Shown here in pieces: positions 1 through 12,583 of a DNA stretch of 12,583 bases. The notes under the pieces are model-generated. The model worked only from the letters and a program-made list of their open reading frames with translations, ran no database searches and was not told the origin of the DNA. This stretch comes from a virus (taxonomy: Duplodnaviria; Heunggongvirae; Uroviricota; Caudoviricetes): the IMG/VR virus record IMGVR_UViG_2562617113_000016; one strand, given 5' to 3'. The translations under genes and the position numbers were made by a program. Numbering within the stretch: the first letter of the stretch is position 1; each line of letters opens with the position of its first letter.

Positions 1-1371
1 TCAGGCTGTCGCAGGGTCGTCACATTTTGGCAGCCAGTCGCCGTAGCTTTCCTCTTTCAGCGTCAGGTTGGTCTGTATCCCCTGTTTGGTATGGCGCTTC
101 TCGTAATTCAGTCCGTATTCCTTCAGCATCACCGGCAGCCCCAGCCCGAACATTTTCAGACTGAGTACATTCCGGTAGCCGTTTGCCTCCATGTAGGCCA
201 GATAGGCGTGATAGAGGTATTTACGGTAATTACGCGGGATGATACTGGCGTTCCCCATATACATGCCGCTGGTCTGCGGCAGGGTTTCCAGATAGCCGAT
301 AAAATCAAACGTCGGGTCGGCATCCCGTTTGATGTTCAGTGCCTCGTCTGAGTTCTGCTGGGACTGAAGCAGTGACCGGGCGAGCATCGGGTCGCTGAAC
401 TTCTGCATCAGGTGACGCACGATGACCGCCAGCTCGCGGGTGATTTTGTCCTTAAGCTGCGGGTCGCGCTCCTGCGGGGCTATCTGTTCCGGGAAGTGAA
501 TAATCACCCGCCGGCGTGACACGCCGCCGCTGCGGTCGGTGAAGCGCATCGGGTTATTGTTCACGGCCAGAATCACCGCCGGGATATGCGTGGAGTACGC
601 ATCCCGGTATTTCGGGTCCACGGACACCGCATCGCCGCCGGTGATGGCCTTGAGTCCGGCACCGTCGCCGCTCCATTTTTCCTGGTCCGGCAGGCGTATC
701 AGTGAGAAGCCAGTTAACGCGGCACGTTCACGCGGGGATTCCAGCGTCTCAATGGTGGCCGACGTGGCGTTATCCTCCCCGGCCAGCAGGGTGGCTATTT
801 CGGCCATGATACTTTTGCCGCTGCCGCCGGGACCGGTCACCTCCAGAAAGAGCTGCCAGTCGTAGCGGTTTGCCAGCACCATAAACAGTGCGGCCAGAAT
901 CACGTCGCGTTTTTCCGCACGGCCACCGGCGGCACGGTCAAGCCAGCGCCAGAACGCGGGGGCGTGGGTCTCCAGCGTTTCACCGTCCACCGGCGGGGTG
1001 AAATCCACATCGCACAGGGTGCGCATCCAGTGTAACGGACTGTGCGGGTGGAACGTGCCGTTCTGCGTGTCGAGCACGCCGTTACGAAAGCCAATCAGGC
1101 GGCGGGAGGGGGCTTCCTGCTGTGGAATAATCAGCTTCAGGGTGTCCACCACGGAGGCCACCTTCCCGGAGGAGAACGGCGCGCGCAGACGCTGAAACAG
1201 CCCGGCCACATCCCGGGCAAAGTCCTGTGGCGGCAGCACCTTCCAGACACCATTTTCATAGCGGGACAGAAGCTGGCCGTTGGCATCGACCGCGAGCGCC
1301 TCACCGTAATGCTCATAGATACGCATGGCCTTTTCGCTGGTACTCATGGCGGAAAACTCTGCTTCGCTCAT
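1..1371 (-). CDS. alpha: P4-type alpha protein, C-terminal helicase/origin-binding portion (ORF downstream of the frameshift)
   Basis: 456-aa ORF; translation matches the C-terminal two thirds of P4 alpha as I recall it, including a P-loop-like GPGGSGKS. Stop codon at 1-3. Open frame continues upstream of the ATG to about 1536. Confidence 0.85.
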   Translation of the reverse strand: MSEAEFSAMSTSEKAMRIYEHYGEALAVDANGQLLSRYENGVWKVLPPQDFARDVAGLFQRLRAPFSSGKVASVVDTLKLIIPQQEAPSRRLIGFRNGVLDTQNGTFHPHSPLHWMRTLCDVDFTPPVDGETLETHAPAFWRWLDRAAGGRAEKRDVILAALFMVLANRYDWQLFLEVTGPGGSGKSIMAEIATLLAGEDNATSATIETLESPRERAALTGFSLIRLPDQEKWSGDGAGLKAITGGDAVSVDPKYRDAYSTHIPAVILAVNNNPMRFTDRSGGVSRRRVIIHFPEQIAPQERDPQLKDKITRELAVIVRHLMQKFSDPMLARSLLQSQQNSDEALNIKRDADPTFDFIGYLETLPQTSGMYMGNASIIPRNYRKYLYHAYLAYMEANGYRNVLSLKMFGLGLPVMLKEYGLNYEKRHTKQGIQTNLTLKEESYGDWLPKCDDPATA

Positions 1372-2333
1372 GGTGTCGAACGGGCTTTCAGCCGGTGGCC
1401 GGATGGCATCGTAAATGGCCTTACGGGTGGCCTCCCCGCCGTACTGCGTGAAGGCATCATTCCAGTCACCGAAGACCGGCGGCAGGGCAACAACGCCCTC
1501 ACACGCATCTGCGGCTGCGGCAGCTTTTTCTGGCCGTCACCGCTGAGGTCACGGTCTGCGGCAAGGACAATCTGACAGGCCGGATGCTTCTGCCGGGCAA
1601 GGCTGGCCAGAGAAAGGAGGTTCACGGAAGAAAGCGCCACCATCACCGTTTCACCGGTCAGGTGATGCACGGTAAGTGCGGTCGCGTATCCCTCCGCTAT
1701 CCACAGACGTTTTCCGGCCTGATTCTGTCCTTCAAGGGTGTGACAGGTGCCCCTGACCTGTCCGCCTTTCAGGGTGCGCTTACGGCCGTCAGCACTGATT
1801 AACTGAAGGTTAACCAGTTCGCCGCTGTCGTCATACAGTGGCACCACAAGGTCACCGGCACGCCAGCTCACGCCACCGGCTCTGTGTGTGCCGGTCAGCA
1901 TCCGGCATTCCCGGCCGGGAAAGCCCTTGCGGGTCAGGTAGGCGTTACCGGTTCCGGGACGGGTTTTCGCCATCAGGGTTTGTGCCAGTGCGGCGGCGTT
2001 CTTCCGGGCAGCGTCTGTTTCAGCAACGGCGGCAGCCGTCACTGCCGGGTCAGCCGGTGGCAGGCTGCCGGTCACGGCAGCCACCTTTGCGGCCGCGTCG
2101 GACGGGGAAACACCAAACACCTTTTCAACCAGTTTCAGGCCGTCACCGGCACCACACTGATTGCAGTACCAGGTGCCGCGCCCCTCCCTGTCATCAAAAC
2201 GGAAGCGGTCACTCCCGCCACAGACCGGACAGGGCTGATGACGGTTTTTCAGCACCTGAATCCCCAGCGCCGGGAGAATACGCGGCCAGTGGCCGAGTGC
2301 ATGGCTGACGGTGGCGGTTACGTTCATTTTCAT
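1368..2333 (-). CDS. alpha: P4-type alpha protein, N-terminal primase portion (zinc-binding CxxC...CxxC plus primase core); last ~51 codons are out of frame
   Basis: 321-aa ORF starting MKMNVTATVSHALGHW with CPVCGG...CNQCG zinc motif. Good RBS (AGGAG) about 9 nt upstream of the ATG at 2331-2333. The tail after GDGQKK looks like frameshifted read-through ending at TGA overlapping the ATG of the downstream ORF. Confidence 0.85.
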   Translation of the reverse strand: MKMNVTATVSHALGHWPRILPALGIQVLKNRHQPCPVCGGSDRFRFDDREGRGTWYCNQCGAGDGLKLVEKVFGVSPSDAAAKVAAVTGSLPPADPAVTAAAVAETDAARKNAAALAQTLMAKTRPGTGNAYLTRKGFPGRECRMLTGTHRAGGVSWRAGDLVVPLYDDSGELVNLQLISADGRKRTLKGGQVRGTCHTLEGQNQAGKRLWIAEGYATALTVHHLTGETVMVALSSVNLLSLASLARQKHPACQIVLAADRDLSGDGQKKLPQPQMRVRALLPCRRSSVTGMMPSRSTAGRPPVRPFTMPSGHRLKARSTP

Positions 2334-2347
2334 GGTGTTGTTCTCCT

Positions 2348-2668
2348 TCAGTGCAGTACCGGCGCTTTTATGTGACGGGCACAGAGTTCATCCATCACAA
2401 CCAGCCCGAGAAAGGACAGCGACGGCGCGGCCTTCAGGGGGCCGGATTCCATTAAATCTTCCAGCAGGGCACAGGCTATCTGACGCCCTTTTTCCTCACC
2501 GTGCTGGCGCAGATAAAAGCCTTCCAGCTCAGCGGCGATGGCCGCCTCCAGTGACTCAAGGGTGAGATGCGGGTAGCGGTGCTGACGTTCGCACACGGTC
2601 AGCCAGGCACAGGCGACAGCGCGACGGTAAAGGGCAGCGCGTAAGACGGGCGGTAAGGGTGTTTTCAT
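2348..2668 (-). CDS. hypothetical protein, P4 left-operon orf106-like
   Basis: 106-aa ORF directly upstream of alpha; GGAGG RBS 7 nt upstream of the ATG at 2666-2668; same strand and tight spacing as the alpha operon. Confidence 0.6.
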
Positions 2669-2803
2669 TTGCTTTCCTCCCTGTGACAGATGACTGCATT
2701 CCGTGCCGGTTGCATTAACTGATAAGGCATATCTGCGTCTCCTGAAGACGTGCGTATCCCTGCGCGAATACGCACATTTAATTTTTCGGGTGTCGTTTTT
2801 TAA

Positions 2804-3259
2804 TTACAGATAATTGCGGTAACTGTTATCCGGGGTGGTTTCCGGGTCAGGCTCCGTGCGGGGAATTTCCCGCCATTCCCGCGCTACCGGTGCTGCCCGG
2901 CTGACCGGAACAGTGTCCTGCGGGTAAATATCCAGATATTTCTCCCGCCATTTCTGTAATTCCGGGTCTCCGGCCATTTCTTTCAGTACCGCATGCCGGT
3001 TTACGGGGCTGCGTTTAAACAGGTCAGGACGGTCACAGGTAAATTCCCGCAGAAAACGCCCCAGCGGGATGTCTGTGGTGCGCCCGTCGGCGAGGATACG
3101 CACAAGGATACTGAATTTACGGCGGTACGGATTCCAGACAATGTCCGGGCAGCGGTACGGCATTTCCCACGGAATACCGTCTTCCAGAATGCCGACCACG
3201 GCCACATCGGGAAAACCGGCAGAACGGTAAATCTCACCGGGCTGGGGAAAATCAAACAT
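2804..3259 (-). CDS. hypothetical protein, P4 left-operon orf151-like
   Basis: 151-aa ORF; start overlaps the stop of the upstream ORF by 8 nt (translational coupling). Confidence 0.6.
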   Translation of the reverse strand: MFDFPQPGEIYRSAGFPDVAVVGILEDGIPWEMPYRCPDIVWNPYRRKFSILVRILADGRTTDIPLGRFLREFTCDRPDLFKRSPVNRHAVLKEMAGDPELQKWREKYLDIYPQDTVPVSRAAPVAREWREIPRTEPDPETTPDNSYRNYL

Positions 3260-3539
3260 GCGTCCTGTCTCCCCGGTCTTTCTGCTGGGCGAGAAAATCG
3301 CGGCACAGGCCTTTGGCTTTCAGCTCATTCAGCACAAAATCAATATCTTCATTCAGGTAGCTGAAAATATGCGGAATGTAGAGCTGATGCAGGCCGGAGA
3401 GTTCACGGTGAATCAAATCACCCCCAACAAACTGGGATACGGCGCTGGCGCGGTTGAGCTTATGGTAAGCCTCAATGCTGAGGTGTTCACGGGCGTCATG
3501 ACGCGCTGAGACGGTCTGAGGGGCTTTTTTATTACGCAT
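3252..3539 (-). CDS. small 95-aa protein, candidate P4 epsilon-like (helper derepression) protein
   Basis: Internal ATG at 3537-3539 of the longer track ORF 3252..3779, preceded by a strong SD (GGAGGTG, about 5 nt spacing). The upstream 80 codons of the track ORF look non-protein-like. Size and position match epsilon in P4; identity by recall only. Confidence 0.45.
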
Positions 3540-3729
3540 GAGACACCTCCACCACCGGCAGACGGGCAGCAAGGGAGAGCACATAGTCACGGACAAGGGA
3601 ACGGCGGGCGCTGCGTTCATCACCGGCGACGGTGCGAAGCATACAGATACGGGGATGACGGTCTGCGCGACGGACAGCCGCAAACACAAAGACAAATTCA
3701 GGGTGTGAGGGGGTAAGGGTCGTAGCCAT
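3532..3729 (-). CDS. small 65-aa protein, first gene after the immunity leader (kil-like position)
   Basis: ATG at 3727-3729 with strong SD GGAGGT and 6-nt spacer; lies in the frame of track ORF 3532..4167, whose N-terminal region I interpret as leader. Alternative starts at 3906 or 3936 have poor RBS. Confidence 0.4.
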
Positions 3730-3739
3730 AAGGCAACCT

Positions 3740-4046
3740 CCGATAACAGCGTAAATGACGCTATCGCCGGAGTTCTCACGCTCGATGGCGATAGCCCAGA
3801 CGGGGGTGAGAATACCGGCGTTATCGGAAACCGGCCAGCCCGGAGGCTGCCCCGCCTGAGCTACCATTGACTCAGTGGCATAACATGCGATTGCGAACAG
3901 GATCATACCTGCACGGCAAACCACACGCCACACCATAATCTGGTGCTCTGTGGCGTTGATTGCGACACAAAAAAAGACGCATGGCGCGTCATATGTCGCC
4001 GATAACATACTCGGGTTCTCACGCCCGGCTGCCGATTTTGCGGCAG
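3740..4046 (-). ncRNA. candidate P4-type immunity leader (cI-RNA-like region with seqA/seqB/seqC-like complementary elements)
   Basis: Direct repeats GCGTGAGAAC (4015-4024 and 3772-3781, minus strand) and GTTATCGG (3999-4006 and 3740-3747), with a segment between them (3804-3827) complementary to both. The downstream copy overlaps the SD of the 65-aa ORF. Hairpin plus T7 run at 3969-3990. Confidence 0.35.
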
Positions 4047-4083
4047 CGGAAAAACTATATCCGCAAATGCCGGAAAAAGGCAA
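4047..4083 (-). promoter_or_regulatory. candidate sigma70 promoter (PLE-like) for the left operon
   Basis: Minus strand TTGCCT (4078-4083), 18-bp spacer, TATAGT (4054-4059), immediately downstream of the vis-like gene. Confidence 0.4.
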
Positions 4084-4118
4084 GCCAGAAAAAGGGAGTT
4101 TTTGCAGAGCGGGCATCA

Positions 4119-4385
4119 TCATGCGTCGTACCCCCGTTTGCGTCCGGCAATGCGTCCGGCCATCCATGCGGTGACTTCAGAGTGCAGCCAGGCCACATTT
4201 TTACCGCCAAGACTCACCTGCGGCGGAAATTCCCCCTTACGGATGAGTTCATAGATGGTCGAGCGTGACAGGCCGCACAGGTGCATCACTTCCGGCAGAC
4301 GTAAAAAACGCTCCTGCGTGATGTCCGGCAGCGGCATCAGTGGCGTCACAGGGGCGGGAGACGGGGAAGAAAAAACAGCTTGCAT
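4119..4385 (-). CDS. AlpA/Vis-family HTH DNA-binding protein (P4 orf88/vis-like regulator or excisionase)
   Basis: 88-aa ORF with the AlpA-family signature RLPEV...[17 protein letters not shown]...W..SEV; GAGGT RBS about 8 nt upstream of the ATG. Confidence 0.75.
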
Positions 4386-4439
4386 CGGGCTACCTCGTTA
4401 ATGTCCATACAGCACCGGATAAGTCCGTCCGGCTTCGGG

Positions 4440-4505
4440 TAGCGCTTTATTTTGTGAATATTTTTGGCAGACGCAACAGGGGGGATTTGTTCCGGCAGCC
4501 TTACA
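4440..4505 (-). promoter_or_regulatory. candidate Delta/Ogr-activated late promoter (PLL-like) driving the vis-like gene
   Basis: TGT-N12-ACA dyad at 4488-4505 (TGTtccggcagccttACA); a start about 55 bp downstream on the minus strand would fall near 4441. Confidence 0.45.
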
Positions 4506-4530
4506 ATGACTGTGTGTTTTTTGTTCATTC

Positions 4531-4560
4531 CCACTTAAAGTCATTTAAAGCCACTTAAAG
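4531..4560. repeat. three tandem 10-bp repeats (C/T)CA(C/T)TTAAAG
   Basis: CCACTTAAAG TCATTTAAAG CCACTTAAAG, helically phased, between the PLL-like dyad and the iteron cluster. Confidence 0.6.
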
Positions 4561-4664
4561 CAATTCGTAATTTTTATAGTGAAATACAAATCGTTTCTTC
4601 TTATTCATTCACAGCGAATTAATAAAAACAAACAGTAGTAAACAGCACAAAAAGTCCATGAGCG

Positions 4665-4768
4665 GGTGAACAGTGGTGAACAGACGGTGAACAGTCATTA
4701 CTGCGATTGTTCACCCTTTAACTTACTGTATTACTTATCTTTTTTTTATGGTGAACAGAGGTGAACAG
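4665..4768. repeat. iteron cluster of P4 type I (TGTTCACC / GGTGAACA) alpha-binding repeats; candidate ori
   Basis: GGTGAACAG at 4665-4673, 4675-4683, 4686-4694, 4750-4758 and 4760-4768, plus an inverted copy TGTTCACC at 4708-4715; 10-11 bp spacing; flanked by A-rich tracts. Confidence 0.6.
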
Positions 4769-4849
4769 TAAAATATAAAAAAAAACAAACAGTAAGCCGG
4801 TTTTTCCTGCGACCTTTTCCTGGCTTGCCGGTCTGAGGATGAGTCTCCT

Positions 4850-4915
4850 GTGTCAGGACTGGCACATCTGCAATGCGTCGTGTTGTTGTCCGGTGTACGT
4901 CACAATTTTCTTAAT
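4850..4915 (+). promoter_or_regulatory. candidate Delta/Ogr-activated late promoter (Psid-like)
   Basis: TGT-N12-ACA dyad at 4850-4867 (TGTgtcaggactggcACA), about 55 bp upstream of a plausible start near 4913; sid ATG at 4939. Confidence 0.5.
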
Positions 4916-4938
4916 CTGAAGTGACGAGGAGCCGGAAA

Positions 4939-5673
4939 ATGTCTGACAACACCATCCCTGAATATCTGCAACCCGCACTGGCACAACTGGAAAAGGCCAG
5001 AGCCGCCCATCTTGAGAACGCCCGACTGATGGATGAGACCGTCAAGGCCATTGAACGGGCAGAGCAGGAAAAAAATGCGCTGGCGCAGGCCGACGGAAAT
5101 GACGCTGATGACTGGCGCACAGCCTTTCGTGCAGCCGGTGGTGTCCTGAGCGACGAGCTGAAACAGCGCCACATTGAGCGCGTGGCACGCCGGGAGCTGG
5201 TACAGGAATATGACAATCTGGCCGTGGTGCTGAATTTTGAACGTGAACGCCTGAAAGGGGCGTGTGACAGCACGGCCACCGCCTACCGGAAGGCACATCA
5301 TCACCTGCTGAGTCTGTATGCAGAGCATGAGCTGGAACACGCCCTGAATGAAACCTGTGAGGCGCTTGTCCGGGCAATGCATCTGAGCATTCTGGTACAG
5401 GAAAATCCGCTCGCCAACACCACCGGCCATCAGGGCTACGTCGCACCGGAAAAGGCTGTCATGCAGCAGGTGAAATCATCGCTGGAACAGAAAATAAAAC
5501 AGATGCAAATCAGCCTCACCGGTGAGCCGGTTCTCCGGCTGACCGGACTGTCAGCGGCAACACTCCCGCACATGGATTATGAGGTGGCAGGCACACCGGC
5601 ACAGCGCAAGGTGTGGCAGGACAAAATAGACCAGCAGGGAGCAGAGCTTAAGGCCAGAGGACTGCTGTCATGA
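4939..5673 (+). CDS. sid: Sid, capsid size determination (external scaffold) protein
   Basis: 244 aa from ATG 4939 (MSDNTIPEYLQ...) with GAGGAG RBS. The track ORF starts at an upstream GTG (4921). Size and gene order sid-delta-psu match P4. Confidence 0.85.
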   Translation: MSDNTIPEYLQPALAQLEKARAAHLENARLMDETVKAIERAEQEKNALAQADGNDADDWRTAFRAAGGVLSDELKQRHIERVARRELVQEYDNLAVVLNFERERLKGACDSTATAYRKAHHHLLSLYAEHELEHALNETCEALVRAMHLSILVQENPLANTTGHQGYVAPEKAVMQQVKSSLEQKIKQMQISLTGEPVLRLTGLSAATLPHMDYEVAGTPAQRKVWQDKIDQQGAELKARGLLS

Positions 5674-6170
5674 TTTACTGCCCGTCGTGTGGACATGTTG
5701 CTCACACCCGTCGCGCACATTTCATGGACGATGGCACCAAGATAATGATTGCACAGTGCCGGAATATTTATTGCTCTGCGACATTTGAAGCGAGTGAAAG
5801 CTTTTTCTCTGACAGTAAAGATTCAGGAATGGAATACATTTCAGGCAAACAGAGATACCGCGATTCACTGACGTCAGCCTCCGGCAGTATGAAACGCCCG
5901 AAAAGAATGCTTGTTACCGGATATTGTTGTCGGAGATGTAAAGGCCTTGCACTGTCAAGAACATCGCGGCGTCTGTCTCAGGAAGTCACCGAGCGTTTTT
6001 ATGTGTGCACGGATCCGGGCTGTGGTCTGGTGTTTAAAACGCTTCAGACCATCAACCGTTTCATTGTCCGCCCGGTCACGCCGGACGAACTGGCAGAAAG
6101 CCTGCATGAAAAACAGGAACTGCCGCCAGTACGCTTAAAAACACAATCATATTCGCTGCGTCTGGAATGA
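5670..6170 (+). CDS. delta: Delta, Ogr-family zinc-finger late transcription activator (tandem Ogr-like domains)
   Basis: 166 aa; two Cys4 clusters (CPSCG...C..IYC and CCRRC...C.DPGC); ATGA overlap with the sid stop. Confidence 0.85.
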   Translation: MIYCPSCGHVAHTRRAHFMDDGTKIMIAQCRNIYCSATFEASESFFSDSKDSGMEYISGKQRYRDSLTSASGSMKRPKRMLVTGYCCRRCKGLALSRTSRRLSQEVTERFYVCTDPGCGLVFKTLQTINRFIVRPVTPDELAESLHEKQELPPVRLKTQSYSLRLE

Positions 6171-6243
6171 GGGCTGCCGGTTAACACCGGCCGTCGCCGC
6201 ACACCGTATTTTTATTCTTCAGCATGATGAGAAAGAGATAACG

Positions 6244-6816
6244 ATGGAAAGCACAGCCTTACAGCAGGCCTTTGACACCTGTCAGAATAACAAAGCAGCA
6301 TGGCTGCAACGCAAAAATGAGCTGGCAGCGGCCGAACAGGAATATCTGCGGCTTCTGTCAGGAGAAGGCAGAAACGTCAGTCGCCTGGACGAATTACGCA
6401 ATATTATCGAAGTCAGAAAATGGCAGGTGAATCAGGCCGCTGGTCGTTATATTCGTTCGCATGAAGTCGTTCAGCACATCAGCATCCGCGACCGGCTGAA
6501 TGATTTTATGCAGCAGCACGGCACAGCACTGGCGGCGGCACTGGCACCGGAGCTGATGGGCTACAGTGAGCTGACGGCCATTGCCCGAAACTGTGCCATA
6601 CAGCGTGCCACAGATGCCCTGCGTGAAGCCCTTCTGTCCTGGCTTGCGAAGGGTGAAAAAATTAATTATTCCGTACAGGATAGCGACATTTTAACGGCCA
6701 TCGGATTCAGGCCTGACGCGGCTTCGGTGGATGACAGCCGTGAAAAATTCACCCCTGCGCAGAACATGATTTTTTCGCGTAAAAGTGCGCAACTGGCATC
6801 ACGTCAGTCTGTGTAA
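6244..6816 (+). CDS. psu: Psu, polarity suppression / capsid decoration protein
   Basis: 190-aa ORF following delta; size and position as in P4. Confidence 0.85.
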   Translation: MESTALQQAFDTCQNNKAAWLQRKNELAAAEQEYLRLLSGEGRNVSRLDELRNIIEVRKWQVNQAAGRYIRSHEVVQHISIRDRLNDFMQQHGTALAAALAPELMGYSELTAIARNCAIQRATDALREALLSWLAKGEKINYSVQDSDILTAIGFRPDAASVDDSREKFTPAQNMIFSRKSAQLASRQSV

Positions 6817-6851
6817 AATTCCCCGAAAATCCGCCCGTTTTTACTGAAAAA

Positions 6852-6880
6852 AGCCATGCATCGATAAGGTGCATGGCTTT
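6852..6880 (+). terminator. candidate intrinsic terminator after psu
   Basis: 9-bp stem AGCCATGCA / TGCATGGCT with 9-nt loop, followed by TTTGCATGCGTTT. Confidence 0.45.
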
Positions 6881-6980
6881 GCATGCGTTTCCCTGCCTCA
6901 TTTTCTGCAAACCGCGCCATTCCCGGCGCGGTCTGAGCGTGTCAGTGCAACTGCATTAAAACCGCCCCGCAAAGCGGGCG

Positions 6981-6999
6981 GGCGAGGCGGGGAAAGCAC
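6981..6999. other. cos: P2/P4 cos site (19-nt cohesive-end sequence)
   Basis: GGCGAGGCGGGGAAAGCAC matches the P2/P4 cohesive-end sequence as I recall it; sits in a GC-rich dyad context just downstream of psu, as in P4. Confidence 0.75.
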
Positions 7000-7170
7000 T
7001 GCGCGCTTACTTAGATGCGTGAATTTATTTATATCACTGAAGTATATCCCTAAGCTCATTTCTCAAAGGGCCTATGGTTGCACAAGGTTGTACCATGGCA
7101 TTCAAAACTTTTTAAACCAAGAATGACAATTTCATTATTAGGCCGGAATAGTTACTAATTTTAGTATAGG

Positions 7171-7199
7171 TTGCGATTGTTTAACGCATTTTTTATTAT
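7171..7199 (+). promoter_or_regulatory. candidate sigma70 promoter for the first cargo gene
   Basis: TTGCGA (7171-7176), 17-bp spacer, TATTAT (7194-7199) in AT-rich DNA upstream of the 434-aa ORF; several alternative hexamers exist nearby. Confidence 0.3.
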
Positions 7200-7241
7200 G
7201 ATGCAGATTTTATTATTACTAATGGGGTGCAAAAAACACGT

Positions 7242-8531
7242 ATGAAAAAAAATGTTGGTAACCGCAATAAAAATTCTGATGTGCTTATTCTTAAAGGTAT
7301 GTTGAACAATTTAAAAGATGGTTTAAATAATTTTGAATTATTGCTTAAATTGCAGTTTAAAATATTGGTGTGCGTGATGAGATGTGAGCGGAAAATTAAG
7401 TTTCTTAAAAAGAATAATGCTCATTTAAGGTCGGTGTTAAAAAAATCAAGACTTCCAAAAGAAAAATCTCTGGCAGTAAAAGAAAAAATTAAATACAATT
7501 CTGAAGTAATTACTGCTGAAAAATTCAAGATATATACGTATAAAATGTTTGGCGATGCTGTTGCATTTTTATACATCGATAAATATACAATTAAACAGTT
7601 ATACTACAATGTACATAATTACAATGTTAAAGAAACGTCGGGGGATTTGAGCGGTAAGTCTGGATTGCGAGAGGAATGGGAATGCGTAAAACTTGCATGT
7701 GATAATAAAGTTCCAGCTCTGTTGCATGATATTACAATGAGTATAAGGCATGGAGATGTATCACTTTTAGGTAAAGATGAGCCATTTATTATTGAGATGA
7801 AATCAAGCTCAAATACAAATAAGAGAGTTGAGCGGCAAAAATCTAACCTTGAAAAATTAGGAAGTTTCATAGCAAAAGACGAAGCTGAAAATTTTCGAGG
7901 GATTCCATTGTTAATCAGGAAAAATTTGTTAACTGAAGAGGAATCATATTCTCAGGTTTTAAATGAGTGTCTTAATGATTGTCGCAGCAAAGGAATGGCT
8001 TTGGTTGAAGCTGAAAAAGGATTTTATATCTGCGCAGTTAGAGAAGGGAATATGGCTTCTATGCTAGAAAATATAGATTTTGATGAAAAAAAAGAAGTTT
8101 TTCCTGTATTTCTCAATCAATATAAAAATAATGGGGAATGGCTACCATTAACACCATTTACACTATTAATTAACGATCCTTACGATCTCCATGATTTTAT
8201 CGAAGGGGAATTAACAATAGCTTGTTTTTTAATGCTCGATGAATACAAAAAAATTGCTATAGAACTAGGCTATGAATTAGTTTTTGTTTCAAATGATGAA
8301 TATAGTATCTTGTTAAAAAGAATTGGTGAAGATATTATATTTGGTGTTTCCTGGCAAATGTTGTTAAGAGTTCCATTAGAGATGATGTCCATGTCATGGT
8401 TGATAAAAGAAAGTATTAATATATATAGTAACTCCCTAGAAAATAGCACCCATAATGATGAATTAAATCAGGGGCAGGGAAATACTAAAAATTCATTATT
8501 CGAAAAATACAAGAATTTATTTTCTTACTAA
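7242..8531 (+). CDS. cargo protein A, unknown function, putative PD-(D/E)xK-fold nuclease
   Basis: 1.3-kb ORF in AT-rich DNA, where random ORFs of this length are improbable. First ATG at 7242; track start is GTG at 7227. Motif ...PALLHD(168)...FIIE(190)MK(192) fits the hhhD...hhhExK pattern. No strong RBS seen. Confidence 0.8.
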   Translation: MKKNVGNRNKNSDVLILKGMLNNLKDGLNNFELLLKLQFKILVCVMRCERKIKFLKKNNAHLRSVLKKSRLPKEKSLAVKEKIKYNSEVITAEKFKIYTYKMFGDAVAFLYIDKYTIKQLYYNVHNYNVKETSGDLSGKSGLREEWECVKLACDNKVPALLHDITMSIRHGDVSLLGKDEPFIIEMKSSSNTNKRVERQKSNLEKLGSFIAKDEAENFRGIPLLIRKNLLTEEESYSQVLNECLNDCRSKGMALVEAEKGFYICAVREGNMASMLENIDFDEKKEVFPVFLNQYKNNGEWLPLTPFTLLINDPYDLHDFIEGELTIACFLMLDEYKKIAIELGYELVFVSNDEYSILLKRIGEDIIFGVSWQMLLRVPLEMMSMSWLIKESINIYSNSLENSTHNDELNQGQGNTKNSLFEKYKNLFSY

Positions 8532-8563
8532 TTAAGCATTGTAATTATATTTGATTTTTTCTA

Positions 8564-8597
8564 CAGGCTTGGACGGAATCATATAGCTCCAAGCCTG
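8564..8597. terminator. hairpin between the convergent cargo genes (candidate terminator, mainly for gene A)
   Basis: Perfect 10-bp stem CAGGCTTGGA / TCCAAGCCTG with 14-nt loop; followed by TGTTGTGTC on the plus strand; a T-run precedes it. Confidence 0.5.
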
Positions 8598-8632
8598 TTG
8601 TGTCGGTATCAAAAAGAAAGTGATATTATTGT

Positions 8633-10006
8633 TTATCTAATATATTTTGTTACTTCCATATTATCTTCATCGTCAAAAGAGTACTCAACCATCATACGAC
8701 TATTTTTACCTGACTTAATATCTTGAAGCCAAGCTGAGGCAACCCTAGGGTCTAAATGCTGTTTTCTACTCAGCTCATTATTTTTTAGCCTATCAAGCCT
8801 TATTGCTCTTTGAAGAGTTTTATCGATGTAGTCTTCCAAATCAATGGACAACCTCCTTTTTGGATATAAATATTGGTATTCATCACACAATAGTACTCCT
8901 GGTAATTTAATTTCGCGTAGGTCGAAAGAATACCAACTATAGTTTTTAGACTCATTAGCTAATTCCGAAACTAGATGAGCCCCATTTTGTTGTAAGAGAG
9001 ATATTTTGTGATCGATGCTAATGTCAGATATTTCTCTTAAAGACTCAAAATGCATGTTTTCGTAGATAGTATTTAATAAAATACTCTCCATGTAAGAGTA
9101 AAAATCAGTACCATCGATGATAATATTAGTTTCATTGTAGACTGCAAGAGACATAAGATATATGAAGAAAACTGCGGGAGTACTATTACCTCTGTTTATA
9201 TCAAGTCTAAGGGAGTTGACATAATCAGGCGGAGAGTTTGAGAAAATTTCTCTTATTAACCAGTCTGGAATAGTGGTTCTTGTTAGAATGTCAGCGTTCA
9301 AACTTGAACGACATAAAAAAATACACATCTTTAATTTTAATTTTATTGAAAATGATGGGAATAAATGATCGATGAAAGATAAAATACATGTATACTCTGC
9401 TAAGTCTGTTTGTTGCAACTTTTCTTTTATTTCATTTTCAAGCATTTTTAATTTAAAAAAATCATTCCTTTTTTCTAATATTTCCCAATGAAATAATTGC
9501 TCCTGAGCGTACGCATGCCCCTCTAAAATAGCTAGCATGCTTAAAGGAATGTTTAGGATTTCTTGATAATTATTAACATACCCAAAGAAATGGACTCTGA
9601 TATACACACCCATATCGTCATCATATTGTAATGATGCTTTAATATTTTTATAATTTAATTTATTAGTGCTGTTGTTTTTGAAGTGATAATGTAAAGTAAT
9701 TTCAGTATCATCAACTAATAAATTATCAAAAGCCTCCTTTGTTTCATATTTAAAATAGTTATATAGCCGACATGAATAATTTAACCCCCAGTGAGTTGTA
9801 GAACAATCAAGTAAATGGATTGTTTCATGGAGATATGTTTTATAAAATTCAATTTCGCTATCATCAAAATCATATATGCTTTTACTGTCTATGATATTTT
9901 GTGCTTGCGGTAAACTTATATTTAATTCATCGTTTGAAATCTCAATTAAATGTGATGAAAAATCATAAGAACCCAATGTTTTGCTGTTAAATATACATCC
10001 GCTCAT
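8633..10006 (-). CDS. cargo protein B, unknown function, putative zincin-like metallopeptidase (HEXXH)
   Basis: 457-aa ORF in AT-rich DNA. HETIH at residues 60-64 (DNA 9815-9829) in the context YKTYLHETIHLLD. Start ATG overlaps the integrase stop (ATGA) with AGGGGA RBS 6 nt upstream. Confidence 0.8.
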   Translation of the reverse strand: MSGCIFNSKTLGSYDFSSHLIEISNDELNISLPQAQNIIDSKSIYDFDDSEIEFYKTYLHETIHLLDCSTTHWGLNYSCRLYNYFKYETKEAFDNLLVDDTEITLHYHFKNNSTNKLNYKNIKASLQYDDDMGVYIRVHFFGYVNNYQEILNIPLSMLAILEGHAYAQEQLFHWEILEKRNDFFKLKMLENEIKEKLQQTDLAEYTCILSFIDHLFPSFSIKLKLKMCIFLCRSSLNADILTRTTIPDWLIREIFSNSPPDYVNSLRLDINRGNSTPAVFFIYLMSLAVYNETNIIIDGTDFYSYMESILLNTIYENMHFESLREISDISIDHKISLLQQNGAHLVSELANESKNYSWYSFDLREIKLPGVLLCDEYQYLYPKRRLSIDLEDYIDKTLQRAIRLDRLKNNELSRKQHLDPRVASAWLQDIKSGKNSRMMVEYSFDDEDNMEVTKYIR

Positions 10007-10278
10007 AGCAAATCCCCTAAAAGATAATCAGAGTACCATTGAATCATCGTTTTCCTTTGAGAAAAATATTGTGCGTGATTATAGGTTCCTCGGATATTGT
10101 TCTTATCAACATGTGCTAATTGCATTTCAATCCAGGTACTATCAAATCCCTGTTCATGTAGGATTGTTGACATTGTATGTCTAAAACCGTGACCTGTAGC
10201 ACGTCCTTTGTAACCAAGTAACTCAATCACTTGTGAAACACTTTCTTTTGAAATTGGTTTGCTACGTAACCGGCTCAT
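10003..10278 (-). pseudogene. int: tyrosine recombinase (P4-type integrase), C-terminal remnant only
   Basis: 91-aa ORF with catalytic-domain signature GHGFRHT...LAHVDKNNIRGTYNHA (R-H-R-Y region). The upstream in-frame codon is a stop and no integrase-like sequence is found further upstream; IS DNA begins there. Confidence 0.8.
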
Positions 10279-10318
10279 TTAAACCGTCTGGTCTGTTTCC
10301 TCCGGCTCTACAAAAATA

Positions 10319-10996
10319 ATGTCCATCATTTTTAATGGACACTATCGTATGAAACACCGGACCTGGATCACTGAAGCTTTACGTCTTCACTTTGAAGAAC
10401 ATTTACCCCGGGTTGTGGCCGGGCGTCGCCTGGGTGTACCAAAATCAACAGTTTGTAGTATGTTCGTGCGCTTTCGGAGAGCTGGCCTTTCGTGGCCTTT
10501 GCCCGCAGGCATGTCGGAGCAGGAACTTGATGCCTGCCTTTACGGACAATTTTCCACGGTACCAGTCGTACGTCCTGAAAGCACCGTTATATCCGAAGCC
10601 CCCGTGGTAAAAAAACGTCCCCGGCGGCCCAACTTCCCTTATGAGTTTAAAATCGCCTTAGTGGAGCAGTCACTGCAGCCCGGAGCCTGTGTGGCGCAGA
10701 TCGCCCGGGAAAACGGAATCAACGATAACCTGCTCTTCAACTGGCGCCATCAATACCGGAAAGGTGGCCTGCTGCCTTCCGGAAAAAATATGCCGGCACT
10801 GCTTCCCGTGACGTTAACGCCGGAGCCGGATAATAAAATCCCGGCCCCCGCACAGGAACCAGAGCAGATAAATACACCGTCCGACAGTCTGTGTTGTGAG
10901 CTGGTTCTGCCGGCCGGAACTCTCAGGCTTAAAGGTAAACTGACGCCGGCGTTATTACAGACACTTATCCGCGAAATAAAAGGGAGCAGCCACTGA
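10319..10996 (+). CDS. tnpA: IS66-family TnpA (orf1) accessory protein with HTH; N-terminal extent uncertain
   Basis: 225-aa ORF. C-terminal part (KRPRRPNFPYEFKIALVEQSLQPGACVAQIARENGINDNLLFNWRHQYRKG) is a transposase HTH typical of IS66 orf1. N-terminal about 90 aa carries a second HTH (LRLHFEEHLPRVVAGRRLGVPKSTV...AGLSWPLP) that resembles IS21-family IstA N-termini from memory. Confidence 0.65.
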   Translation: MSIIFNGHYRMKHRTWITEALRLHFEEHLPRVVAGRRLGVPKSTVCSMFVRFRRAGLSWPLPAGMSEQELDACLYGQFSTVPVVRPESTVISEAPVVKKRPRRPNFPYEFKIALVEQSLQPGACVAQIARENGINDNLLFNWRHQYRKGGLLPSGKNMPALLPVTLTPEPDNKIPAPAQEPEQINTPSDSLCCELVLPAGTLRLKGKLTPALLQTLIREIKGSSH

Positions 10997-11343
10997 TGAT
11001 ATCTCTCCCTGCAGGTTCGCGTATCTGGCTGGTTGCAGGTATCACCGATATGCGAAATGGCTTTAACGGCCTGGCATCAAAAGTTCAGAACGTCCTGAAG
11101 GATGACCCGTTCTCCGGACACCTGTTCATCTTCCGCGGACGCCGGGGTGACCAGATAAAAGTGTTGTGGGCTGACAGTGACGGACTGTGCCTCTTCACCA
11201 AACGCCTGGAGCGGGGCCGCTTCGTCTGGCCAGTCACCCGTGACGGCAAGGTGCACCTTACTCCGGCTCAGTTATCCATGCTTCTTGAAGGTATCAACTG
11301 GAAGCACCCGAAACGAACGGAACGCGCTGGAATCCGCATATAA
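10996..11343 (+). CDS. tnpB: IS66-family TnpB (orf2)
   Basis: 115-aa ORF with ATGA overlap to tnpA; sequence (..GLCLFTKRLERGRFVWP..) matches IS66 Orf2-like proteins as recalled. Confidence 0.85.
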   Translation: MISLPAGSRIWLVAGITDMRNGFNGLASKVQNVLKDDPFSGHLFIFRGRRGDQIKVLWADSDGLCLFTKRLERGRFVWPVTRDGKVHLTPAQLSMLLEGINWKHPKRTERAGIRI

Positions 11344-11362
11344 CCCGTTGTAAAGTGAGGAT

Positions 11363-12583
11363 ATGGACACCTCACTTGCTCATGAGAACGCCCGCCTGCG
11401 GGCACTGTTGCAGACGCAACAGGACACCATCCGCCAGATGGCTGAATACAACCGCCTGCTCTCACAGCGGGTGGCGGCTTATGCTTCCGAAATCAACCGG
11501 CTGAAGGCGCTGGTTGCGAAACTGCAACGTATGCAGTTCGGTAAAAGCTCAGAAAAACTTCGTGCAAAAACCGAACGGCAGATACAGGAAGCACAGGAGC
11601 GAATCAGCGCACTTCAGGAAGAAATGGCGGAAACGCTGGGTGAGCAATATGACCCGGTACTGCCATCCGCCCTGCGCCAGTCTTCAGCCCGTAAACCGTT
11701 ACCGGCCTCACTTCCCCGTGAAACCCGGGTTATCCGGCCGGAAGAGGAATGCTGTCCTGCCTGTGGTGGTGAACTCAGTTCTCTGGGATGTGATGTGTCA
11801 GAGCAACTGGAGCTTATCAGCAGCGCCTTTAAGGTTATCGAAACACAACGTCCGAAACAGGCCTGTTGCCGGTGCGACCATATCGTGCAGGCACCAGTAC
11901 CTTCAAAACCCATTGCACGCAGTTATGCCGGAGCGGGGCTTCTGGCCCATGTTGTCACCGGGAAATATGCAGACCATCTGCCGTTATACCGCCAGTCAGA
12001 AATATACCGTCGTCAGGGAGTGGAGCTGAGCCGTGCCACACTGGGGCGCTGGACAGGTGCTGTTGCTGAACTGCTGGAGCCGCTGTATGACGTCCTGCGC
12101 CAGTATGTGCTGATGCCCGGTAAAGTCCATGCTGATGATATCCCCGTCCCGGTCCAGGAGCCGGGCAGCGGTAAAACCCGGACAGCCCGGCTGTGGGTCT
12201 ACGTCCGTGATGACCGTAACGCCGGTTCACAGATGCCCCCGGCGGTCTGGTTCGCGTACAGTCCGGACCGGAAAGGTATCCATCCACAAAATCACCTGGC
12301 CGGTTACAGCGGTGTGCTTCAGGCCGATGCTTACGGTGGTTACCGGGCGTTATACGAATCCGGCAGAATAACGGAAGCCGCGTGTATGGCTCATGCCCGG
12401 AGAAAAATCCACGATGTGCATGCAAGAGCGCCCACCTACATCACCACGGAAGCCCTGCAGCGTATCGGTGAACTGTATGCCATCGAGGCAGAGGTCCGGG
12501 GCTGTTCAGCAGAACAGCGTCTGGCGGCAAGAAAAGCCAGAGCCGCGCCACTGATGCAGTCACTGTATGACTGGATACAGCAA
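11363..12583 (+). CDS. tnpC: IS66-family transposase TnpC (orf3), 5' partial, runs off the window
   Basis: Translated by hand from ATG 11363: [29 protein letters not shown]..., with leucine-zipper-like N-terminus and CPACGG...CCRCDH zinc motif typical of IS66 transposases. Open to the window end, so absent from the ORF track. Confidence 0.85.

Follow-up and report, generated by a model that had tools for sequence, protein, structure and literature searches.

A one-base contraction in a homopolymer run splits the P4-type alpha gene of Escherichia coli O157:H43 strain T22 and is most likely a sequencing miscall

The alpha (primase-helicase) gene of a P4-like prophage is recorded, in the DNA analysed here, as two overlapping open reading frames (ORFs) instead of one. 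This raises the question of whether the gene is naturally split, is read through by recoding, has been inactivated by mutation, or is intact in the bacterium and was misread during sequencing. The window (the whole stretch of 12,583 nucleotides that we analysed) is 100% identical to AHZD02000013.1:112668-125250, a draft contig of assembly GCA_000247665.4 of E. coli O157:H43 strain T22, and the contig ends 2 bases beyond it. In the window, a P4-like satellite prophage occupies the selC site of T22. On the minus strand of its alpha region, an ORF of 321 aa (2333..1368) and an ORF of 456 aa (1371..1) lie in different frames and overlap (Table 1). The primase frame stops with the TGA at 1368-1370, the helicase frame is open from 1536 downwards, with TGA stops preceding it at 1537-1539 and 1549-1551, and the two frames are open together over 1368-1536. 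Both ORFs and their shared open stretch had been called from the sequence in an earlier inspection, and all of its coordinates match the ORF and stop positions. The plus strand at the frameshift site reads CAGC TTTTT CTGGCC, where T5 (A5 in the gene sense) occupies 1525-1529. The primase frame runs through ...GDGQKK and then into an out-of-frame tail; the alternative (helicase) frame reads ...KAAAAADACEGVVALPP... Addition of one A to the A5 run gives a single 777-aa protein, which is identical to WP_029365073.1.

Table 1. Features of the window that bear on the split alpha gene
Feature	Position	Strand	Remarks
alpha (primase-helicase) gene, P4-like prophage	1..2333	-	assembled length 2333 nt versus 2334 nt; one base off the A38 CDS (WP_029365073.1)
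Upstream ORF, 321 aa	1368..2333	-	alpha residues 1-270: Zn ribbon and first two thirds of Toprim
Toprim-encoding DNA	1438..1706	-	alpha residues 210-299, interrupted by the frameshift at residue 270/271
A5 run (T5 on plus), frameshift site	1525..1529	-	codons CAG AAA AAG in the upstream frame
Tail of upstream ORF	1523..1371	-	51 out-of-frame residues, then TGA 1370..1368
ATGA overlap	1368..1371	-	stop (TGA) of the upstream ORF shares bases with the start (ATG, Met322 of alpha) of the downstream ORF; ...GACACCATGAGC...
Downstream ORF, 456 aa from first ATG	1..1371	-	alpha residues 322-777; frame open from 1536
A9 run on plus (T9 in alpha sense)	4777..4785	.	P4 ori-like region; 8 in A38, T43, 23CRST007 and SC475
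P4-type integrase gene, 3' remnant	10003..10266	-	similarity to the intact A38 element ends at 10266
IS66-family element	10267..12583	+	adjoins the truncated integrase; tnpC runs off the window
IS66-family genes	tnpA 10319-10996; tnpB 10996-11343; tnpC past window end	+	part of element 10267..12583

The two ORFs together correspond to a well-known gene. Window positions 1-6980 match P4 positions 4636-11624 with 97.9% identity, and this stretch contains, in order, the alpha stop codon, ORF106, ORF151, epsilon, the ori region, sid, delta and psu. After repair of the frame the protein is 99.5% identical over residues 1-773 to phage P4 gpalpha (NP_042036.1, 777 aa), an origin-binding primase-helicase, confirming the name of P4-type alpha that the gene had been given in the original prediction. 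The order of the domains is also that of P4 gpalpha (Zn ribbon, DnaG-type Toprim, D5_N, SF3 helicase and C-terminal Pox_D5/winged-helix), as are the neighbours (ORF106/DUF5375, ORF151, epsilon, sid, delta and psu). By this homology the two overlapping ORFs both derive from alpha and do not overlap by chance. The P4 record annotates an 'alpha gene product (AA 1-777)' and has six A residues at the frameshift site, as do nearly all homologues. Unlike in P4 alpha, A6 at nt 805-810 of the gene is recorded in T22 as A5, resulting in the 321-aa and 456-aa ORFs.

Much closer relatives of the T22 gene place the lesion precisely. In a megablast search the alpha region was present in 1,154 of 5,426 complete E. 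coli genomes, and the best matches, A38, T43, 23CRST007 and 23CRST012, aligned 2,401 bases to the 2,400-base query. Alignment of the alpha of the window with that of E. coli A38 revealed a single difference, one more A in the A38 run; the product of the A38 gene (WP_029365073.1) has 777 aa and reads ...GDGQKKAAAAADACEG... In four genomes alpha matches that of T22 in every other base but has A6. The original prediction, which had put a missing A at this run and had expected a repaired protein of about 776 aa, close to the 777 aa of P4 alpha, thus placed the lesion correctly (A38 has exactly one extra A there, and P4 has A6), and 777 aa is the length of both the A38 protein and the P4 record. 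Its description as a -1 frameshift suits the frame of the downstream part, but the lesion itself is a 1-nt deletion in the DNA.

Domain searches showed what the missing base does to the protein. In the intact protein, Pfam profiles matched Zn_Ribbon_Prim (residues 30-66), Toprim_3 (210-299), D5_N (336-467), DUF5906 in the P-loop region (500-608) and Pox_D5 (670-768). The 321-aa ORF retains the Zn ribbon (PF08273, residues 30-66, E = 7e-19) and an incomplete Toprim_3 domain, matched at residues 210-271 over profile positions 2-60 of 95, as compared with residues 210-299 and profile positions 2-93 of 95 in the repaired protein. The 456-aa ORF contains D5_N, the SF3 helicase P-loop GPGGSGKS and the C-terminal Pox_D5 domain, with PF08706, PF19263 and PF03288 all matched. 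Alpha residues 271-321 are missing from both ORF products. A single polypeptide of about 777 aa with all the activities is therefore absent as assembled and is restored by one added A; the repaired protein scored 107.1 bits against TIGR01613 ('phage/plasmid primase, P4 family'), slightly below the cut-off of 108.7.

Could primase and helicase be natural, separate and co-translated subunits in this element? The ATGA overlap is a layout typical of translationally coupled genes, and gene callers do report two genes here. The break, however, falls within Toprim (profile positions 2-60 of 95 are kept), where there is no linker, the upstream ORF ends with 51 out-of-frame residues, residues 271-321 belong to neither product, and the nearest relatives are fused and identical but for one base. 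Since the break is off a domain boundary, a natural two-subunit arrangement is not supported, and on the strength of the domain mapping we rejected a naturally split primase and helicase as exceedingly improbable. The ATGA overlap is a by-product of the frameshift and is not conserved as a junction. Homologues that naturally consist of two ORFs, which the original prediction had named, together with reads supporting the run length, as what would overturn it, did not emerge: the two-ORF form is rare, being carried by 4 complete genomes among about 1,150 and by 1 metagenome contig among 79, and the gene is fused in over 98% of homologues. The split is thus no new kind of gene arrangement; alpha is a textbook gene.

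A real A5 allele might nevertheless be read through by recoding, either by a ribosomal -1 shift on CAG_AAA_AAG (an A_AA.G tetramer) or by RNA polymerase slippage on the A run. The cell would then make a low level of the wild-type 777-aa protein beside a truncated primase fragment, and alpha would be tuned or phase-variable. The zero frame of the A5 allele does read AAA_AAG, and a -1 shift there gives ...GQKKAAAAAD..., as in the wild type. A run of five A residues, however, is too short for efficient transcriptional slippage. The zero-frame A_AA.G is shared with programmed -1 sites of E. coli (dnaX and the IS1/IS3 families; A_AAA_AAG or A_AAG), but unlike those sites the one in T22 has no conserved heptamer or proven stimulator, and the two-frame layout is rare and not the norm. 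The T22 site falls short of an X_XXZ_ZZN heptamer (G_AAA_AAG overall) and offers only the tetramer A_AA.G. This tetramer is the most shift-prone one in E. coli and reaches 5.6% with a strong downstream pseudoknot (PMC4066793), but tetramers without a stimulator gave 0.147% against a background of 0.112% (Sharma et al., PMC4066793). The 85 nt downstream of the site fold with -38.4 kcal/mol (z = -1.98, with 5 of 200 shuffles as good), which is a marginal signal for a G+C-rich coding sequence. Furthermore, the fused A6 form is found in 78 of the 79 metagenome contigs, in 5 of 5 species-representative contigs, in P4 and in all but 4 of the approximately 1,150 complete genomes. Programmed frameshifting was rejected because the two-frame layout is not conserved and the downstream structure is marginal; we consider recoding of either kind very improbable, and a real A5 allele would be at most slightly leaky through a -1 shift.

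The two explanations put forward in the original prediction, an error in the homopolymer or a real inactivation of the gene, are thus the realistic ones, and the make-up of the assembly and the pattern of differences from related genomes favour error. Errors in homopolymer length are a common fault of the flow-based platforms 454 and Ion Torrent. The A6 tract at nt 805-810 is the sole homopolymer of six or more bases in intact alpha and also the longest, and is therefore the likeliest error site in the gene. T22 was assembled with CLC Genomics Workbench from SOLiD, Ion Torrent PGM and 454 Titanium data, comprising about 7 million SOLiD mate pairs (50 + 50 bp), 233,333 PGM reads and 73,764 454 Titanium reads, with SOLiD accounting for about 140x (PMC3668004). 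We propose that A5 in T22 is probably a homopolymer-length miscall of sequencing or assembly. Flow-chemistry reads (454 Titanium or Ion Torrent PGM) would have undercalled the length of the A6 run, and the undercall would have entered the T22 consensus, so that A5 was recorded and the 777-aa alpha was split into 321 and 456 aa; strain T22 itself would keep an intact alpha gene. That the miscall sits at this particular A run is what we infer from the lesion, its one-base repair, the platforms used and the pattern of differences described below.

We compared T22, using a 21-kb contig stretch, with A38. Over 18,901 aligned bases there were no substitutions and three one-base indels, all of them in homopolymers: T9 in T22 against T8 in A38 (4777-4785), A5 against A6 (in alpha) and T6 against T7, the last being 25 bases past the alpha stop and outside the window. 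At all three sites T22 is the outlier, while A38, T43, 23CRST007 and SC475 agree with one another. The A38 stretch has 50 runs of six or more bases, of which T22 is discordant at 3; with alpha set aside, T22 disagrees at 2 of the remaining 49, corresponding to a local error rate of a few per cent for runs of this length. In mutation-accumulation studies of E. coli, about ten substitutions arise for each indel (approximate figure), which makes three indels and no substitution very unlikely as real mutations. Three length changes with no substitution are the signature of technical error. The run at 4777-4785 varies in length among genomes, and is therefore not decisive alone.

The gene count of T22 points in the same direction. 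The genome report gives 5,587 genes on a 4,959,535-bp chromosome (PMC3668004). This density of 1.13 per kb, against about 0.977 annotated features per kb in A38, T43 and 23CRST007, is about 15% over that of the related genomes, or about 740 extra calls, in a comparison of annotation pipelines of different years. Such an excess of calls is expected if artefactual frameshifts split many genes, and from its size about every seventh gene would be hit. The case resembles known homopolymer errors of flow sequencing in its one-base change, in the position of this change in the longest run of the gene, in the assembly being partly 454/Ion Torrent, and in the two further private length changes nearby without substitutions. 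It differs from a pure flow-sequencing case in that high-depth SOLiD data also entered the T22 assembly; SOLiD reads, which have no homopolymer bias, might have outvoted the errors of the flow reads. Also against a miscall, T43 and 23CRST007 have private homopolymer differences of their own at long runs, and given these T22 is not uniquely noisy in this region. A literature search found no resequenced or complete T22 genome.

Alternatively, the deletion could be genuine, with replication slippage having shortened A6 to A5 in T22 and turned alpha into a pseudogene, which we regard as unlikely though far from negligible. The upstream product would then consist of the Zn ribbon, the first two thirds of Toprim with EGYATA and DRD still included, and 51 nonsense residues; residues 322-777, a helicase/origin-binding fragment, would appear at most through a restart of translation at the ATGA. 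Replication of the P4 type requires a functional primase, and the element would have become a fixed island. As the sole run of six or more bases in alpha, A6 is also the likeliest site of replication slippage in the gene. P4-like variants without alpha are frequent, as reported by Moura de Sousa and Rocha (PMC8628076). The integrase gene of the T22 element is in fact interrupted, at window position 10266/10267, by the IS66-family element, and because of this interruption selection on alpha may be relaxed and its loss cheap. The three private homopolymer changes without a substitution over 18.9 kb of near-identical genomes, the error-prone flow chemistries in the assembly and the inflated gene count all speak against a real deletion. 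A search for a lineage mate with the int::IS66 junction of T22 gave none; no complete genome spans this junction. Contigs that share the 75-aa integrase remnant were tried as lineage mates and rejected, since they carry other integrase variants on different elements.

To see how far the A5 allele extends beyond T22, we searched with 40-mers that seed solely on A5 alleles; this replaced a 101-base census, which had yielded just the absence of an exact match. A5 with the flanks of T22 was in no complete RefSeq E. coli genome in the 40-mer search, for which a positive control with the GDAR2-2 flank worked. This rarity, together with the A6 of the four genomes whose alpha otherwise matches, counts in favour of a miscall. 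A5 with a GCC flank, in contrast, was found in four complete genomes: GDAR2-2 (NZ_CP074407.1), UID2309220026 (NZ_CM142666.1), 11PC (NZ_CM137005.1) and E3 (NZ_CM130010.1). All four are annotated as 'frameshifted' by PGAP, the annotation pipeline of NCBI, and these alpha pseudogenes have lost one A from the A6 run exactly as in T22, giving a gene of 2333 nt; their existence favours a genuine deletion. They differ from T22 in the codon after the run (GCC, as opposed to GCT in T22), and the three full-length ones differ from it by about 34 nt; E3 is partial, with 19 differences over 1,673 nt. Among 79 metagenome contigs matched in a pattern scan, 78 had A6 and 1 had A5, and the same scan of a species-representative genome collection found A6 in 5 of 5 matched contigs. 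The A5 metagenome contig (L036) has a name in SPAdes style, and its alpha is the only frame-disrupted one among the 57 full-length copies in the scanned contigs, which also speaks for a real deletion.

In total, A5 occurs on at least eight distinct alpha backgrounds including that of T22, mutually differing by 3-47 nt, and contraction or miscalling at A6 is therefore recurrent. Not all of these backgrounds carry equal weight. Two contigs, L004 and L006, have 5-6 one-base indels each in 7.7 kb relative to DETEC-P793, their nearest complete genome, nearly all of them homopolymer deletions; as noisy assemblies, they were not counted as separate evidence that A5 is real. Logan contig L008, of the same lineage, differs from DETEC-P793 by one substitution and A5 in 4.5 kb, and is free of the other homopolymer deletions of its lineage's noisy assemblies. 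This suggests, from the contig sequences, that the A5 allele may be real in the L008 lineage. With A5 present on other backgrounds, L008 and L036 among them, the contraction probably occurs in nature. Its frequency there is only about 0.3-1.3%, however, which argues against a real deletion as the source of A5 in T22.

A sequencing miscall is therefore the most probable source of the split in alpha; failing that, the split is a pseudogene mutation of an ordinary kind that has arisen repeatedly. Recurrence on at least eight backgrounds could also be taken to mean that the A6 tract, contracted independently on each of them, is a mutational off-switch of P4-like satellites, a proposal that we find highly doubtful. 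If it were true, the primase would be truncated in Toprim, with the helicase/origin-binding fragment coupled to it through the ATGA, and reversion from A5 to A6, or leakage by -1 slippage on A_AAG, would be possible. Satellites would in this way toggle their competence to replicate, or would time and again be fixed by their hosts as cargo islands. If the deletion in T22 is real, alpha has become a pseudogene in an ordinary way, through a change at the site where slippage is likeliest.

The main value of the observation is in quality control. Taken at face value, the split mis-annotates the alpha of T22 as two genes or the element as a dead satellite, and the element would be wrongly counted among the P4-like variants that lack alpha. 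Since the same contraction appears in unrelated elements, surveys of satellite decay should handle this site carefully and check its read support. An exact look-up found the 321-aa product, identical to that of T22, in four other contigs.

The ATGA stop/start overlap at window 1368-1371, which involves Met322 of alpha (the P4-type primase-helicase gene), is an accidental product of the frameshift in this gene. It nevertheless resembles the arrangement of a translationally coupled gene pair, and gene callers may be misled into reporting two bona fide genes.

Homopolymer runs also vary elsewhere. In the P4 ori-like region, where iterons of the TGTTCACC type adjoin long A/T runs (see table), otherwise identical elements differ in the length of these runs, which is 8, 9 or 10 unless G interrupts them; the length of 9 is private to T22, the strain analysed here. 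This variation may reflect noise in the assemblies, or the origin may be truly hypervariable. L004 and L006, contigs of other strains that carry the contracted (A5) allele of alpha, come from near-identical assemblies with 4.66-Mb contigs (GCA_974490235.1 and GCA_974490285.1, respectively). When their loci (5300-12600) were compared with each other and with DETEC-P793, the nearest complete genome, the differences were almost solely one-base homopolymer deletions, which truncate psu in one of the two and ogr/delta in the other.

Features of the ori-like region, cargo, integrase end and L007 flank
Feature	Sequence	Position	Strand	Remark
A8 run (T8 on plus)	window	4740-4747	-	P4 ori-like region
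Long A/T run	window	4777-4785		P4 ori-like region
ORF, 434 aa	window	7227-8531	+	convergent with 457-aa ORF
ORF, 457 aa	window	8633-10006	-	convergent with 434-aa ORF
P4-type integrase remnant and IS66-family element	window	10003-12583		tnpA, tnpB, tnpC
L007 flank genes	Logan contig ERR11528718	7659-11495		TPR chaperone, IpaB/SipB-like, SseC-like, tip-complex protein

In L007, another A5-carrying strain, type III secretion translocator genes lie past yicS on the chromosomal flank in place of nepI-yicN, and its selC-side neighbourhood therefore differs from that of T22. In T22, the IS66-family element interrupts the P4-type int at 10266/10267, leaving the last ~88 codons on the remnant side, a junction absent from complete E. 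coli genomes. Since AHZD02000013.1 terminates within this element, the 5′ part of int may be on another contig.

The interval between psu/cos and int is the variable cargo position of the satellite; here, the 434-aa and 457-aa ORFs take the place of P4 gop/beta/cII. Neither had a Pfam, NCBIfam or PADLOC match (E <= 0.01), and the 434-aa ORF matched only PHROG 14906, a family of unknown function (E = 2e-135). The pair, annotated 'hypothetical protein' in A38, T43 and SC475 (E. coli genomes with a near-identical element), is possibly uncharacterised defence cargo. In the P4-like element of L004 and L006, genes for an OLD-family ATPase and a UvrD-like helicase adjoin int, which, judging by domain content, would constitute a Gabija-like pair.
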